Notes under the pieces: model-generated | What the model was told of the DNA's origin: nothing | The model's database searches: none | The model's input: the letters and a program-made list of their open reading frames with translations, nothing else | Translations under genes and position numbers: made by a program | Assembly (NCBI RefSeq): GCF_002113885.1 | Contig: NW_018404396.1 | Location: 774,503 to 838,502 of the forward strand | From: Mizuhopecten yessoensis | Lineage: Eukaryota | Direction: 5' to 3' | DNA length: 64,000 bases | Shown: positions 62,001 through 63,226 of the stretch, piece by piece | How the letters are laid out: every line of letters begins with the position of its first letter | Numbering within the stretch: the first letter of the stretch is position 1

Positions 62001-63226
62001 ATGCAGAGGACCGGCGACGTGTGGAGAAGGCTCTTGAGGGAGTGGGTTTTAATGCAGGCAAGGTAGGGTAATGTTGCTGTTATTTCAATGTTGAACTTTT
62101 CATTTCTGAACTCTAAGTCAAATTTAGAAAGTATGTTTTAACTTAACATTGATTTATCGTTCAAGTTTGGTAAAATTTCCAGATGAATAAATCAAAACCA
62201 TATATAGAAGATTTTGTATGTAAACTTCATACAAAATGTGTAGTAACCTATCATTTGTCATTAGATATGTATACAGTTGCTTTTGATTGAGCGTTATTCA
62301 ACGTCAAATTTCGTACTTTGGTAATACCCAGTAATATTGTCTTGACCAAACACTGCTTGGGGTCTATTCAAAATCCAAGACGGCAGCTCAGAACAACAGT
62401 GAACAAATCAGAAAAAACGACCACCACACCTTCTTATCATATTAGATGGTGATGCCAAATGTTTTATGATTTCAGAATGAGACCATAGATCCAAACAGAT
62501 TTACATTTGATGGATTTTTCAACTTCTACCGCCACTTAGTGGGAAGGACTGAGGTGGACAAGGTTTTTGACGAGATGTAAGTCACAACAGCATATAGAAA
62601 TCCTCAAACATACAACCTCATACAAGCTCTGCACTGTTCTGATGACGGTCGGCCTAGCCATCCGAAACATGTAAACTAATAACAGTTACAGAATGCTTGT
62701 ATACTTGTATTTACCTCCCTTCCATGGAGCTCTACTAGAATACTCCGGTATCCACTTCAGATTCCTCCATCAAGACATCTACCAACTCTCACCTACAGGA
62801 CGCTGCGACTCCTTTGCCTATAATTGTGTTGGTTCTCCAACACTTTTGTCATTTTCTACAAGCTCTTTACCAGTAAACTCATAACTCCCAGTAAAGTTAC
62901 TGCTGCATTCTTCTGGTTTTAACAATAAACCTGATTCTGTATATATCCTTGTCATGATTAAGAGGTTAAAGGTTAATCAGAAAGTATAAAGATTGGTATT
63001 GAATTAACAACCTAAACATATAAAAAGAAATCATAAGTTATCCTATTTGACTGATTCAGTGGTGCCAAAAAGAAGCCGTACCTAACTGTGGACCAGTTTG
63101 TAGAATTCCTAAACCGTGAGCAGAGAGATCCGCGTTTGAATGAGATCTTGTATCCTTACTACACCACAAAGCAAGCCCAGGACCTGATAAACACCTACGA
63201 GACTAAGACTGGCATGGCTGCCAAGG
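2193..63226 (+). CDS. PLCB1: Phospholipase C beta (PLCB1/2/3-like, 1-phosphatidylinositol 4,5-bisphosphate phosphodiesterase beta); spliced, 8 coding exons in window, 3'-incomplete
   Basis: The spliced translation runs [82 protein letters not shown]...[27 protein letters not shown]. It matches the PLCbeta N-terminus as I recall it (human PLCB1 MAGAQPGVHALQLKPVCV..., [12 protein letters not shown]). All introns are GT-AG and phases are consistent across 889 nt. The symbol names the nearest vertebrate homologue; the gene is probably a co-orthologue of PLCB1-3. Confidence 0.95.
3229..3248. repeat. poly-G run (20 nt)
   Basis: Seen directly. Confidence 0.9.
5030..5662. mobile_element. Non-autonomous hAT-type element (MITE)
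   Basis: Termini TAGTGGTG / CAGCACTA, perfect 8-bp TSD CTAACTGC (5022-5029, 5663-5670), ATCGA-rich subterminal motifs. Confidence 0.85.
6337..6723 (+). mobile_element. Probable solo LTR (TGTT...AACA termini, BEL/Pao-like)
   Basis: Inverted ends TGTTTTCTCCGA / TCGGAGAAAAACA, 387 bp, CpG-rich. TATA-like GTATATA near 6386 and AATAAA at 6619-6624. Flanks GAAAT/GGAGT are only a 3/5 TSD match. Confidence 0.6.
7358..7842. mobile_element. Non-autonomous hAT-type element (MITE)
   Basis: Termini TATTGTTG / CAACACTA, 8-bp TSD AATGTACC/AATGTACT, many ATCGAT subterminal motifs. Confidence 0.8.
8007..8030. repeat. (CA)n microsatellite
   Basis: Seen directly. Confidence 0.9.
8925..9160. repeat. Degenerate tandem repeat, about 27-30 bp (GTACATATTGATGYGTCCTACAC core)
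   Basis: Recurrent CATATTGATG..TCCT motif. Confidence 0.7.
9745..10378. repeat. 18-bp minisatellite (CTGGTAATAAGCCCATGT), about 35 copies, embedded in a MITE end (9726-10423)
   Basis: 18-bp periodicity. Both flanks match the end of the MITE at 61177-61544. Confidence 0.95.
11350..12277. repeat. 28-bp minisatellite (CCCAGTAGATAATCCAGCCACCTTTGTT), degenerate toward the 5' side
   Basis: 28-bp periodicity, homogeneous from about 11830 to 12277. Confidence 0.93.
13340..14145. repeat. Degenerate ~41-bp tandem repeat with internal hairpin GACTCAG-TATTT-CTGAGTC, interrupted by a MITE
   Basis: Recurrent GACTCAGTATTTCTGAGTCAACA...GGTTAC..AGGATA units on both sides of 13776-13974. Confidence 0.75.
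13776..13974 (+). mobile_element. ~200-bp MITE with CATACTTGCCAAC TIRs (copy 1)
   Basis: TIRs CATACTTGCCAACT / AGTTGGCAAGTAT. Degenerate TSD CTCAATAT/TCAATCT. Homologous copy in reverse orientation at 61226-61419. Confidence 0.8.
14976..15058. mobile_element. 83-bp TTAA-flanked (piggyBac-type) MITE, copy 1
   Basis: TTAA on both sides, imperfect TIR of the CTCATTCACCCCT type. Same-length homologue at 41796-41878. Confidence 0.75.
15842..15892. repeat. 3 x 17-bp tandem repeat (CGTACCTGTTGATATTC)
   Basis: Seen directly. Confidence 0.85.
15900..16925. repeat. 39-bp minisatellite (CCCATAGACTACCATCATGTATACATACAAGATATCTGG), degenerate 5' edge
   Basis: 39-bp periodicity, giving 13-aa repeats in the ORF track. 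Confidence 0.93.
18270..18900. repeat. 28-bp minisatellite (CTATGACCTGGTACCTATAGTGTGGTTA)
   Basis: 28-bp periodicity in the 18450-18670 core, with degenerate flanks. Confidence 0.88.
20630..21150. repeat. Two adjacent degenerate tandem repeats (~40-bp AATGTGTAAGGGGGATAAC units; ~46-bp ATAATTATATTTAAAGATATTATATTAGGAAGATGGGG units)
   Basis: Recurrent motifs seen directly. Confidence 0.7.
21430..21822 (+). mobile_element. Degenerate SINE-like retroposon fragment
   Basis: 3' end ...CTCATATGACCTTAGCT...GGATGTTAAACCC followed by an A/C-rich tail (AAAACTAAACCAAAACCAA) resembles molluscan SINE tails. No clear tRNA head. Family assignment is from memory only. Confidence 0.4.
22933..23985 (+). mobile_element. 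Helentron-associated non-autonomous element (HINE/DINE-1/pearl-like), copy 1, spanning the N gap
   Basis: 5' TTATT + subTIR AGGGCCCCGT, then an internal inverted repeat and a (GTCT)n microsatellite. 3' subTIR ACGGGGCCCT, hairpin ACTGAC-CT-GTCAGT, ending CTAGTT. Confidence 0.85.
23021..23588. other. Assembly gap (568 N)
   Basis: Run of N. Confidence 1.
24610..25144. mobile_element. Non-autonomous hAT-type element (MITE)
   Basis: TIRs TAGAGGTGCAAC / GTTACACCCCTA, perfect 8-bp TSD TTGTGACA (24602-24609, 25145-25152), GATAC/GTATC subterminal motifs. Confidence 0.88.
25240..27520. repeat. 41-bp satellite (TACAGATAAACCTGTCCAAAACAGTCTGTCTACTATAGAAA), about 55 copies
   Basis: 41-bp periodicity, near-identical core at about 26200-27000. 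Confidence 0.97.
28300..30292. repeat. 22-bp satellite (ACTAGGAACTATAGCCATAGCT / ACTGGAGACTATACACATAATT variants) with higher-order structure
   Basis: 22-bp monomers of three types, with 138-, 110- and 66-bp higher-order periods. Confidence 0.95.
30625..30845. repeat. 29-bp minisatellite (GACCATTGGGTCCAGAGCTGTGTTGTTAT)
   Basis: 29-bp periodicity, about 6 copies. Confidence 0.92.
31300..31734. repeat. 22-29-bp variable minisatellite (CACATCTCTACTGGTCACA core)
   Basis: Seen directly. Confidence 0.92.
31735..32596 (+). mobile_element. 5'-truncated HINE-like element, copy 2 (same family as 22933-23985)
   Basis: 32202-32596 aligns almost base for base with 23589-23985, including the 3' subTIR and hairpin. 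The upstream part has ~120-bp GGTCAAGGTCA-rich central repeats. Confidence 0.9.
32638..34897. repeat. 34-bp satellite (CACTCCACTGGTCACAAACAAAACAACACAGATA), about 66 copies
   Basis: 34-bp periodicity with GGAA/GATA variants. Confidence 0.97.
35500..35850. repeat. Degenerate repeat (AAGGTCATAGGGTATTGTGAC..TGACTGGTATAGAATAA units)
   Basis: About 5 diverged ~60-bp copies. Confidence 0.6.
35897..37715. repeat. 28-bp satellite (AAGAATACAAGTTACTGACATGACTAGA), about 65 copies, essentially invariant core
   Basis: Exact 28-bp periodicity. Confidence 0.98.
39316..39427 (+). repeat. 55-bp tandem duplication of the intron-1 acceptor and the first bases of exon 2
   Basis: TTAGATTTAAATATTT...TTTTTCAGAGCTCTACGA occurs at 39316 and again at 39371. 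Confidence 0.9.
39416..39493 (+). CDS. PLCB1: PLC-beta coding exon 2 (78 nt, [28 protein letters not shown] domain)
   Basis: Acceptor TTTTTCAG, donor AAG|GTATTC. Conserved DPxG..LYW.DQNK motif. Confidence 0.95.
40323..40555. repeat. 28-bp minisatellite (TAGGGTCAGGAGGTCAGTCTTTGGTATC), about 8 copies
   Basis: 28-bp periodicity. Confidence 0.93.
41495..41681. mobile_element. Short MITE-like element with ~21-bp imperfect TIRs
   Basis: GATTCTATGCTTAAGCCAAAT versus the reverse complement of TTTTGGCTTGAGCACAGAATC. No clear TSD. Confidence 0.5.
41796..41878. mobile_element. 83-bp TTAA-flanked (piggyBac-type) MITE, copy 2
   Basis: TTAA flanks. Homologous to 14976-15058. Confidence 0.75.
42410..43022 (+). 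mobile_element. Degenerate 3' part of a HINE-like element (AGCTCACCT subTIR family)
   Basis: Diverged GATATTTGGC/CCTTGAC/GGTCACAG central repeats. 3' end CAGGTGAGCAATACAGGCCAATTGGGCCTCATGTT matches 59008-59042. Confidence 0.75.
43528..43781. mobile_element. Tc1/mariner-pogo (Tigger-like) MITE
   Basis: TA on both sides. 23-bp TIR CAGTGAAACCTGGTTTTACCGAC with a 21/23 match. Confidence 0.88.
45355..45703. repeat. 40-bp minisatellite (TACATGCAGGCTGTAAACACAAGGTTGGGGTAGAATGTTT)
   Basis: 40-bp periodicity, about 8 copies. Confidence 0.92.
48968..49359. mobile_element. MITE with perfect 15-bp TIRs CAGGGATCAATCTAG (hAT-like ends)
   Basis: Perfect TIR and GGGGAA subterminal motifs. TSD not conserved. 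Confidence 0.8.
51057..51125 (+). CDS. PLCB1: PLC-beta coding exon 3 (69 nt, [23 protein letters not shown])
   Basis: Acceptor TTAACAG, donor AAG|GTAAGC. IRDTRTG..AK.PK PH-domain motif. Confidence 0.95.
51562..51835. repeat. 49-bp minisatellite (CCTATCTGTTCTTACCTGTGGCAACACTTTGTACCTTTGTCTATTCTGG)
   Basis: 49-bp periodicity, about 5 copies. Confidence 0.9.
52102..53568 (+). mobile_element. HINE-like element with two types of internal tandem repeats
   Basis: 5' TTATTAGCTCACCT. 3' AGGTAAGC + hairpin AGCCCC-TCT-GGGGCT + CTTAT. GC-rich GGGGCTGACCCCC internal repeats (52200-52865), then a second repeat type (52930-53430). Confidence 0.85.
57220..57375 (+). CDS. PLCB1: PLC-beta coding exon 4 (156 nt, [11 protein letters not shown]...[14 protein letters not shown])
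   Basis: Acceptor GTTTCAG, donor AAG|GTAAGG. LEDKTVT and INFV motifs of the PLCbeta PH domain. Confidence 0.93.
57604..59042 (+). mobile_element. Full-length HINE-like element with a ~144-bp central satellite array
   Basis: 5' TTATTAGCTCACCTGG with inverted repeat GTGAGCT and short GTCC repeats. About 8 central ~143-146-bp units (CTACCAAGTTTGTTCAAATGAATGACCTTGACC). 3' CCAGGTGAGC + hairpin AGGCCCA-T-TGGGCCT + CTTATT. Confidence 0.9.
60940..61073 (+). CDS. PLCB1: PLC-beta coding exon 5 (134 nt, [31 protein letters not shown]...GRIPVK)
   Basis: Acceptor GTACAG, donor AA|GTTAGT (phase 2). Encodes the PH C-terminal helix Trp plus LEK.HTKL and GRIPVK motifs. Confidence 0.95.
61177..61544 (-). mobile_element. 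Tc1/mariner-pogo-type MITE (CCGTATTTATC-type TIRs, TA flanks) carrying a nested MITE
   Basis: TA|TTGTATTTATCCTGCAATAAGCCCAGG ... CATGGGCTTATTGCCAGATAAATACG|TA. Confidence 0.8.
61226..61419 (-). mobile_element. CATACTTGCCAAC-TIR MITE, copy 2 (nested)
   Basis: TIRs CATACTTGCCAAC / GTTAGCAAGTATG. Reverse-complement homology to 13776-13974. Confidence 0.8.
61978..62062 (+). CDS. PLCB1: PLC-beta coding exon 6 (85 nt, (N)[30 protein letters not shown]-hand region)
   Basis: Acceptor TGTACAG, donor AAG|GTAGGG. DR.RVE.AL motif. Phase matches exon 5. Confidence 0.93.
62476..62576 (+). CDS. PLCB1: PLC-beta coding exon 7 (101 nt, [33 protein letters not shown])
   Basis: Acceptor TTTCAG, donor AT|GTAAGT (phase 2). 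R.E.D..F motif. Confidence 0.94.
62620..62702 (+). ncRNA. Candidate minimal type-I hammerhead ribozyme motif (Penelope-like type) in intron 7
   Basis: CTGATGA (62639-62645), stem II GG..GGC-CTA-GCC..CC, GAAA (62664-62667), palindromic ACATGT stem III, GUA cleavage triplet (62671-62673). The core is flanked by a long imperfect inverted repeat forming stem I. Confidence 0.6.
63060..63226 (+). CDS. PLCB1: PLC-beta coding exon 8 (167 nt, [32 protein letters not shown]...GMAAK)
   Basis: Acceptor ATTCAG, donor G|GTAGGT (phase 1). Diagnostic [12 protein letters not shown]. Confidence 0.96.

Follow-up and report, generated by a model that had tools for sequence, protein, structure and literature searches.

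Minimal hammerhead ribozymes (min-HHRs) are known from the pLTRs of metazoan Penelope-like elements (PLEs), and in the account cited here (PMC4209133) cleavage of the monomer was undetectable and that of dimers low. That account describes a type I fold with a nucleotide inserted between positions 9 and 10.1, a G10.1-C11.1 pair, a long helix II (7 positions), a short helix I and a small palindromic helix III, in copies that are mostly single and truncated, with some close opposite-strand pairs. The copy that we analyzed, in a PLC-beta intron within a 64,000-nucleotide stretch of Mizuhopecten yessoensis DNA (the window), has, like its family, this architecture, pLTR location and copy pattern. 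It differs in that helix I next to the core has 3 bp, compared with 4–5 bp in the S. mansoni families (PMC4209133), that helix II has a 2x2 mismatch and is accompanied by a private distal helix, and that its source elements have a second, zinc-finger ORF.

Other described systems resemble the locus in part. The EN+ PLEs of the Neptune/Nematis type, as outlined in PMC8557442, have a reverse transcriptase (RT) followed by a C-terminal GIY-YIG endonuclease, a Cys-rich CX2-5CxxC linker, pLTR direct repeats, inverted 5' copies and an HHR in the pLTR, all of which we also find here. They are described there with a single ORF, whereas a C2H2 ORF is extra in our elements, and their assignment to this clade is provisional. 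Metazoan non-LTR retrozymes (PMC7229834; bioRxiv 10.64898/2026.07.22.740005) are likewise non-coding, of similar size (225 bp here) and equipped with a type I HHR, with a proposed PLE ancestry. They form tandem units, however, each with a usually canonical HHR, and circular RNA, whereas the window copy is single and minimal, and its limits are stem I and the pLTR end rather than two cut sites. Finally, the amniote hammerheads of RECK and C10orf118 also lie in sense inside an intron of a protein-coding gene, but the cited account of them (PMC10761166) portrays few-copy, conserved ribozymes with confirmed cleavage. The window copy, in contrast, is one of dozens of repeat copies, has a dimer-type stem III and is a predicted ribozyme.

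Results

The product of the host gene is identical to a PLC-beta-1-like database protein (P0003).

62476..62576, + strand: PLC-beta coding exon, EF-hand region, exon 8 of P0003 (exact peptide identity to P0003; Pfam PF22631/PF09279 weak)
62577..63059, + strand: host intron, GT..AG, 483 nt, containing the PLE fragment in sense
63060..63227, + strand: next PLC-beta coding exon, 3' of the host intron (100% to P0003; E 1e-12 to PLC-beta-3 chains)

An earlier note on this DNA had placed the motif 62 nt after the donor of PLC-beta intron 7. The host gene was correctly named, but the numbering was not: the intron follows coding exon 8 of P0003, and the exon before it is exon 7 only if a 39-nt exon (47002-47040) is skipped. 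The 62 nt hold for the distance from the donor to the hammerhead core, which is in sense to PLC-beta, but not for the distance to ATACAAGC.

The motif and its flanks read as follows.

62620-27, + strand: flank-pairing 5' element ATACAAGC
62628-31 and 62633-38, + strand: 5' flank elements TCTG and ACTGTT
62636..62676, + strand: minimal type I hammerhead (stem I GTT/AAC, core, inserted C, stem II, palindromic stem III)
62639-45, + strand: core CTGATGA, then an extra C at 62646
62647-63, + strand: stem II, 2+3 bp around a 2x2 mismatch, loop CTA
62664-67 and 62667-72, + strand: GAAA and the palindrome ACATGT (stem III)
62673, + strand: A17, with the predicted cut after it, then AAC at 62674-76
62681-86, 62689-92 and 62695-702, + strand: 3' flank elements AACAGT, CAGA and GCTTGTAT

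Every element has the letters, order and place that had been claimed for it, including the 2x2 mismatch of stem II, the 3-bp contiguous stem I and the palindromic stem III, and the CUGANGA, GAAA and UH boxes are present in type I order. The extra C, which had been listed as a caveat, is instead a published hallmark of PLE hammerheads (PMC4209133): C62646 is the unpaired nucleotide between 9 and 10.1, and G62647-C62663 is the G10.1-C11.1 pair. As a monomer, stem III has only 2 bp and a 2-nt loop. Eight loose CTGANGA..GAAA matches occur in the window, and the hammerhead locus is the sole structured one; the fold z-score is -3.77 for 62610-62712, a region picked post hoc. The suggested check with the Rfam hammerhead models gave no match at E<=10 in 60000-64000, nor did these models match 10 family loci at E<=1. 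Rfam miRNA matches were rejected as sub-threshold long hairpins.

Further copies are present in the genome. Of 46 candidates we scored 40 and obtained at least 85 matches to the motif, which is thus a lower bound. One satellite accounts for 37 of these matches; it is a separate 48-bp tandem in which 5 of 34 units are fully intact. A 33-place family pattern has 15 exact matches in the genome and none for the reversed control, and core, palindrome and stem I of the window copy are identical to those of family copies. The proposed linkage to RT and GIY-YIG frames also held, since the motif lies 3' of a GIY-YIG frame at two own-family loci (L051 and L064/L103), one of which also has reverse transcriptase. 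In intact relatives it follows the endonuclease frame by ~750–900 nt, and a sense min-HHR occupies the same position in 11 of 18 related loci examined. Stem covariation, a further point raised beforehand, was evident in a hand-picked set of 18 distinct but related sequences that spans families: both partners had changed in 6 of 13 pairs, 93% of cells were paired, and 0 of 500 shuffles reached the score. The 10.1-11.1 column pair is G-C in 15 of these 18, and the stem III palindrome, ACATGT in the window copy, is ACTAGT and ACCGGT in related families. A related family (L104) has 1074-bp direct pLTRs. An adjacent inverted arm, which is a PLE pattern according to the cited account (PMC8557442), accompanies 20 of 47 non-satellite copies.

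The first base of stem I is also the first base of the family copies, many of which have an additional G there; this pattern suggests that capped, uncut RNA was copied. Junctions at or beside the predicted cut were seen in two family or related copies (L034 and L104). The 19 loci found via the 3' part alone show no grouping of their 5' ends at this site.

The repeat extends past the coordinates of the earlier note, to 62860, and the fragment of 225 bp is the non-coding pLTR end only.

62636..62860, + strand: complete PLE fragment, a pseudo-LTR that begins with the hammerhead and ends at TTTCTACA, the 3' terminus common to the family (76% to L025 over 250 columns)
62621..62630, + strand: candidate target-site duplication, left copy TACAAGCTCT (10-bp exact repeat)
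62857..62866, + strand: right copy of the candidate target-site duplication, which shares 4 bases with the end of the element

Exact repeats of 10 bp are reached by 7 of 2952 random windows, and the repeat flanking the fragment is likely to be a target duplication. If so, the candidate empty site would read ATACAAGCTCTTTACC. A crude scan of the other 46 copies, with boundaries set approximately, turned up no regular target duplication.

The long-distance pairing of the flanks is real, with a duplex of -21.6 kcal/mol that 3 of 2975 random 40-mers reach.

62611..62635, + strand: 5' arm of the long hairpin; most of it is either target DNA of the host or an inverted arm that has decayed (no counterpart found 5' of other family copies)
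62677..62712, + strand: 3' arm, family sequence with 6-nt and ~21-nt deletions and C>G at 62695

This duplex is the strongest among 36 copies scored, depends on copy-specific changes and is private to the window copy, without a counterpart as a family feature. A second AAC within the 3' arm (62681-83) is a competing partner for stem I. In fold predictions, the pair probability of the active stem I is 0.003–0.01 with full flanks and ~0.25 with short flanks, so the flank helix is predicted to favor a shifted, inactive register. The active dimer is less stable than the best fold by 18.0 kcal/mol, within the 7.5–18.6 kcal/mol obtained for 7 copies with native upstream sequence. As to the origin of the 5' arm, native upstream sequence with deletions was rejected (local score 14, inside background). 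An inverted arm is possible but weakly indicated, with a score of 18–22 against a cut-off of 40 for a typical inverted arm; only 3 of 21 inverted-arm rows are closer to their own sense arm than to another copy.

Discussion

Our results support a model in which a min-HHR fronts a 225-bp PLE terminal-repeat fragment in the PLC-beta intron and is very probably inactive, a passenger that splicing removes together with the intron. The relic of a stranded Penelope element that the earlier note had offered as one of two readings is backed by copy number, RT/GIY-YIG linkage and covariation. The absence of a partner copy nearby was also confirmed, with no second copy in 124 kb covering all mapped coding exons, and for this reason the window hammerhead is likely inactive. 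In the source element, two hammerheads would have paired via the ACAUGU palindrome and cut multimeric element RNA slowly. The window copy was likely reverse-transcribed from uncut RNA starting at stem I and inserted at a nick, leaving the 10-bp duplication. The flank hairpin probably formed at the DNA level, through template switching or an inverted arm, either while the copy was being inserted or later. The shifted register is the predicted fold of the motif in the pre-mRNA, which would make cleavage too slow relative to splicing.

Nonetheless, several observations count against a plain relic. The core letters are all intact, whereas the next 24 nt have two deletions and 5 changes. The strongest flank duplex of the 36 consists of copy-specific changes, which selection could also yield. 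The folding penalty is not unique among the 7 copies with native upstream sequence, and short flanks raise the active stem I. Lastly, all 4 DNA runs have the insertion in their contigs, and no variant is listed for 62620-62702. The 18 runs that contain the locus all come from one organism, in an index that detects near-identical DNA only.

It is unlikely that the copy is a weakly active passenger without a host role, with a small share of pre-mRNAs cut in trans with a second PLC-beta transcript or a same-family PLE RNA. The core, palindrome and stem I are identical to those of family copies, an active dimer can be drawn in the fold model, and the satellite retains fully intact units; the junctions of L034 and L104 hint at cleavage in the clade. 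However, two RNAs would have to meet within the lifetime of the 483-nt intron, dimers cleave slowly according to PMC4209133, and the 19 loci found via the 3' part lack a cluster of 5' ends at the cut.

Very unlikely, in our view, is the other reading of the earlier note, a co-opted intronic ribozyme or structure in which selection kept the core and built a flank helix that holds stem I, so that the motif cuts PLC-beta pre-mRNA or influences its processing in another way. An intact core in sense orientation 62 nt from the donor, a flank duplex rarely matched by random arms and made of copy-specific changes, a motif without a listed variant in 4 runs and the precedent of RECK and C10orf118 (PMC10761166, as cited above) would all fit. 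Yet differences from the family majority (core 1/41, tail 11/128) are not significant (p 0.12–0.30), the one core change unpairs stem II, the new helix is predicted to favor the inactive register, the monomer stem III is minute and the 5' arm shares bases with the likely target duplication. The variant-free 83 bp are uninformative beside 8 variant places in 61900-62300. Without a partner copy, significant excess core conservation or family-wide flank pairing, co-option is left without support. A speculative and highly improbable variant is a hammerhead in domestication, whose 24-bp helix with the host flank arose from copy-specific changes and which cuts PLC-beta pre-mRNA only with the palindrome of the parent Penelope RNA; if true, transposon expression would tune a host signaling gene, and cleavage of a host pre-mRNA would depend directly on transposon RNA. 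Chance resemblance or an assembly artefact, to which the lack of an Rfam match might point, is refuted by the family-pattern matches and by contigs of 4 runs that match from both sides into the core, and is further opposed by the family, the ORF linkage and the covariation.

The locus by itself carries little weight, because animal genomes commonly contain PLE hammerhead stubs and nothing about this one points to a use by the host. More can be learned from the family, whose suggested copying from uncut RNA touches the open question of PLE hammerhead function. The source elements also carry an extra zinc-finger gene for which we found no earlier description in PLEs in the literature searched, although supplements and Repbase might carry one; 'C2H2' and 'ORF2' are absent from the main text of PMC8557442. 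Histone H3 was not among the PDB matches to the N-terminus of this ORF2. Where Neptune/Nematis has a single ORF, the second C2H2 ORF suggests a variant of that clade. It encodes two C2H2 fingers, lies between the endonuclease stop and the HHR, and directly follows the endonuclease at 17 of 18 loci examined; at L051, the linker CRPCGKPCQTC, of the CX2-5CxxC type, precedes the GIY-YIG match.

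Family membership of the intronic hammerhead

The hammerhead motif of the PLC-beta intron lies in the pseudo-LTR (pLTR) of a Penelope-like retroelement (PLE) fragment, and this copy is very probably an inactive passenger. The motif letters and positions claimed in the earlier note were confirmed on the sequence; the intron was placed by splice mapping to P0003, a PLC-beta-1-like protein of a Mizuhopecten scallop that the flanking exons match letter for letter.

Features of the motif and its intron
62577-63059: host intron (splice mapping to P0003)
62636-38 and 62674-76, + strand: core-adjoining stem I, GTT/AAC
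62639-45, + strand: core CTGATGA
62646, + strand: extra C after the core
62647-63, + strand: stem II
62664-67, + strand: GAAA
62667-72, + strand: palindrome ACATGT (stem III)
after A62673, + strand: predicted cut

The hallmarks published for the minimal type-I hammerheads (min-HHRs) of PLEs in PMC4209133 are all present here, and the region folds with a z-score of -3.77. The Rfam hammerhead models proposed earlier as a check do not match the window motif, which says little because they match none of 10 family loci either.

A search of the scallop's own genome returned at least 85 matches to the element (a lower bound, with 40 of 46 candidates scored), 37 of them within one satellite, and a 33-place family pattern had 15 exact matches versus 0 for its control. 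Homology of the window copy runs from ~62635 to 62860, ending at TTTCTACA, where family copies often stop. Of 47 non-satellite copies, 16 retain native upstream sequence and 20 are joined to an inverted arm; the remaining 11, the window copy among them, have neither. Tandem and inverted arrangements belong to the PLE pattern described in PMC8557442. This copy number, the linkage to PLE reading frames at two loci (L051 and L064/L103) and the covariation of the stems bear out the suggestion of a stranded Penelope-derived relic. The locus is a further case of a known kind of PLE hammerhead (related literature: bioRxiv 10.64898/2026.07.22.740005; PMC7229834, on retrozymes; PMC10761166; PMC2377424).

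Separately, a 48-bp satellite consisting only of hammerhead cores, preceded by an inverted arm, occurs at L057:6900-8680 (G000:C2575, about 141900-143650). It holds 34 units with CTGAnG, 5 of them fully intact. Neighbouring units could form cis dimers; for one adjacent pair, the predicted dimer lies 4.8 kcal/mol above the best fold.

Source elements and a second ORF

L051 has a 302-aa frame that combines a Cys-rich linker and a GIY-YIG domain (E 1.2e-7). Behind this frame come the beginning of a second ORF, an interrupting tandem array and a pair of motif copies. L064/L103 carries RVT_1 and GIY-YIG frames, the same second ORF and, ~740 nt past the stop, a mutated motif copy. Downstream of the motif at L060, the sequence enters a broken frame that we take to resemble a PLE N-terminus. 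The related, near-complete element L104 (G000:C5482:207500-216500) has 1074-bp direct repeats, 99.8% identical, around its RT-endonuclease frame.

The genome contains 43 matches to the second ORF (L104, L051, L053, L055, L103, L106, L123-L142). Two short contigs among the 20 loci obtained for them were dropped and the other 18 examined; at least the endonuclease end lies upstream at 17 of the 18, and a sense min-HHR occupies the same position at 11. The stems of these hammerheads differ in sequence yet pair. In a set of 19 hand-picked sequences (18 distinct), whose relatedness inflates the test, 93% of cells are paired, 6 of 13 pairs changed on both sides and 0 of 500 shuffles reached the covariation score.

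The ORF itself encodes two C2H2 fingers in roughly 200-230 aa and lies inside the pLTR with the hammerhead after it. At 13 loci its start falls within -8 to +8 nt of the RT-endonuclease stop. Two homologs from scallop carry host-gene names, one being 'PRDM16-like'. Its N-termini include MAKTKTTARK and MANTKQTTRRK, which to our eye resemble the histone H3 tail; a PDB search with the N-terminus did not retrieve histone H3. A literature search that took in the main text of PMC8557442 found no published description of a zinc-finger second ORF in PLEs.

Origin of the window copy

Of 31 copies without native upstream sequence, 12 start exactly at the stem I GTT, and 11 of these are preceded by an extra G at a position that is T in intact elements (p about 4e-6, for a set that came from a core search). 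Such starts fit copying from a capped RNA that begins at the hammerhead and was left uncut. In the parent element, paired hammerheads would process the element's RNA, slowly, and the window copy would derive from an uncut transcript beginning at stem I.

Two junctions (L104:2094/2095 and L034:1500) coincide with the predicted cut or adjoin it, and connect to sequence ~90-150 nt further on. Template jumping onto cleaved RNA, deletion or, for L104, assembly could explain them; contig L131 stops at the base of the L104 junction. A small ATAC..GGTATCC hairpin, ~70-120 nt after the cut (window 62739-62754), is common to PLE families that are otherwise unalignable (window, L145, L146 and L147) and is possibly a promoter or RT-binding element.

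Cleavage potential and alternative explanations

Compared with the majority letters of 13 further long copies, the window copy has 1 change in 41 core positions and 11 in 128 tail positions, rates that are not significantly different (p 0.12, binomial; 0.30, Fisher). The sole core change, C62650, removes a stem II pair. Past the core, the copy has lost stretches of 6 nt and ~21 nt and shows a C>G substitution. The 6-nt deletion sets a second AAC (62681-83) beside AGT, so that ACUGUU pairs with AACAGU and the core is left open. In folding models, which ignore tertiary contacts, the active stem I has a pairing probability of 0.003-0.01 with full flanks and about 0.25 with short ones (native copies, 0-0.92), and the active dimer is predicted 18.0 kcal/mol above the best fold versus 7.5-18.6 in 7 native copies. 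By these models the copy sits at the poor end of the native range, yet inside it. No second family copy was found in 124 kb covering the PLC-beta gene, in keeping with the earlier failure to see a dimer partner nearby, so a partner could act only in trans. Weak activity in trans is unlikely. PMC4209133 reports undetectable cleavage for a min-HHR monomer and low cleavage for dimers, and the review PMC6765202 concurs.

Co-option by the host is less likely still. The long-range flank pairing noted earlier is real: of 2975 random arms, 3 pair as strongly as this duplex (-21.6 kcal/mol), which is the strongest among 36 copies scored, and selection for an RNA helix formed with the flank is possible. 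The pairing is, however, private to this copy and no family feature; it arises because the deletions and C>G change past the core let the 3' part pair with the upstream flank. Within the 5' arm, TACAAGCTCT (62621-30) has a second occurrence at 62857-66, the 3' end of the element, a 10-bp match seen in 7 of 2952 random windows. We read the repeat as a putative target duplication, which would make the arm mostly host DNA; a rough scan saw no target duplications in other copies, and a decayed inverted arm is possible instead. Either way, the arm would reflect a DNA-level event.

An artefact can be dismissed: contigs from 4 of 4 DNA runs match from both sides into the core. These contigs, which drop rare variants, list none in 62620-62702 and contain no joint skipping the whole element; all 18 runs containing the sequence come from one organism. 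As an inactive passenger, the hammerhead copy would now be removed with the spliced intron, to no effect.

The host gene

Mapped PLC-beta coding exons span 2193-96200 of the extended window. The label intron 7 holds if a 39-nt exon (47002-47040) is skipped; isoform P0003 includes this exon, which explains why the intron there follows coding exon 8. At one PLC-beta exon end (aa 405-416; L061, extended window 67147-67329), 12 codons occur in three near-copies, suggesting a small intronic tandem duplication. The intron before the host intron contains a cluster of allelic differences at 62115-62131, with a probable indel in one run.
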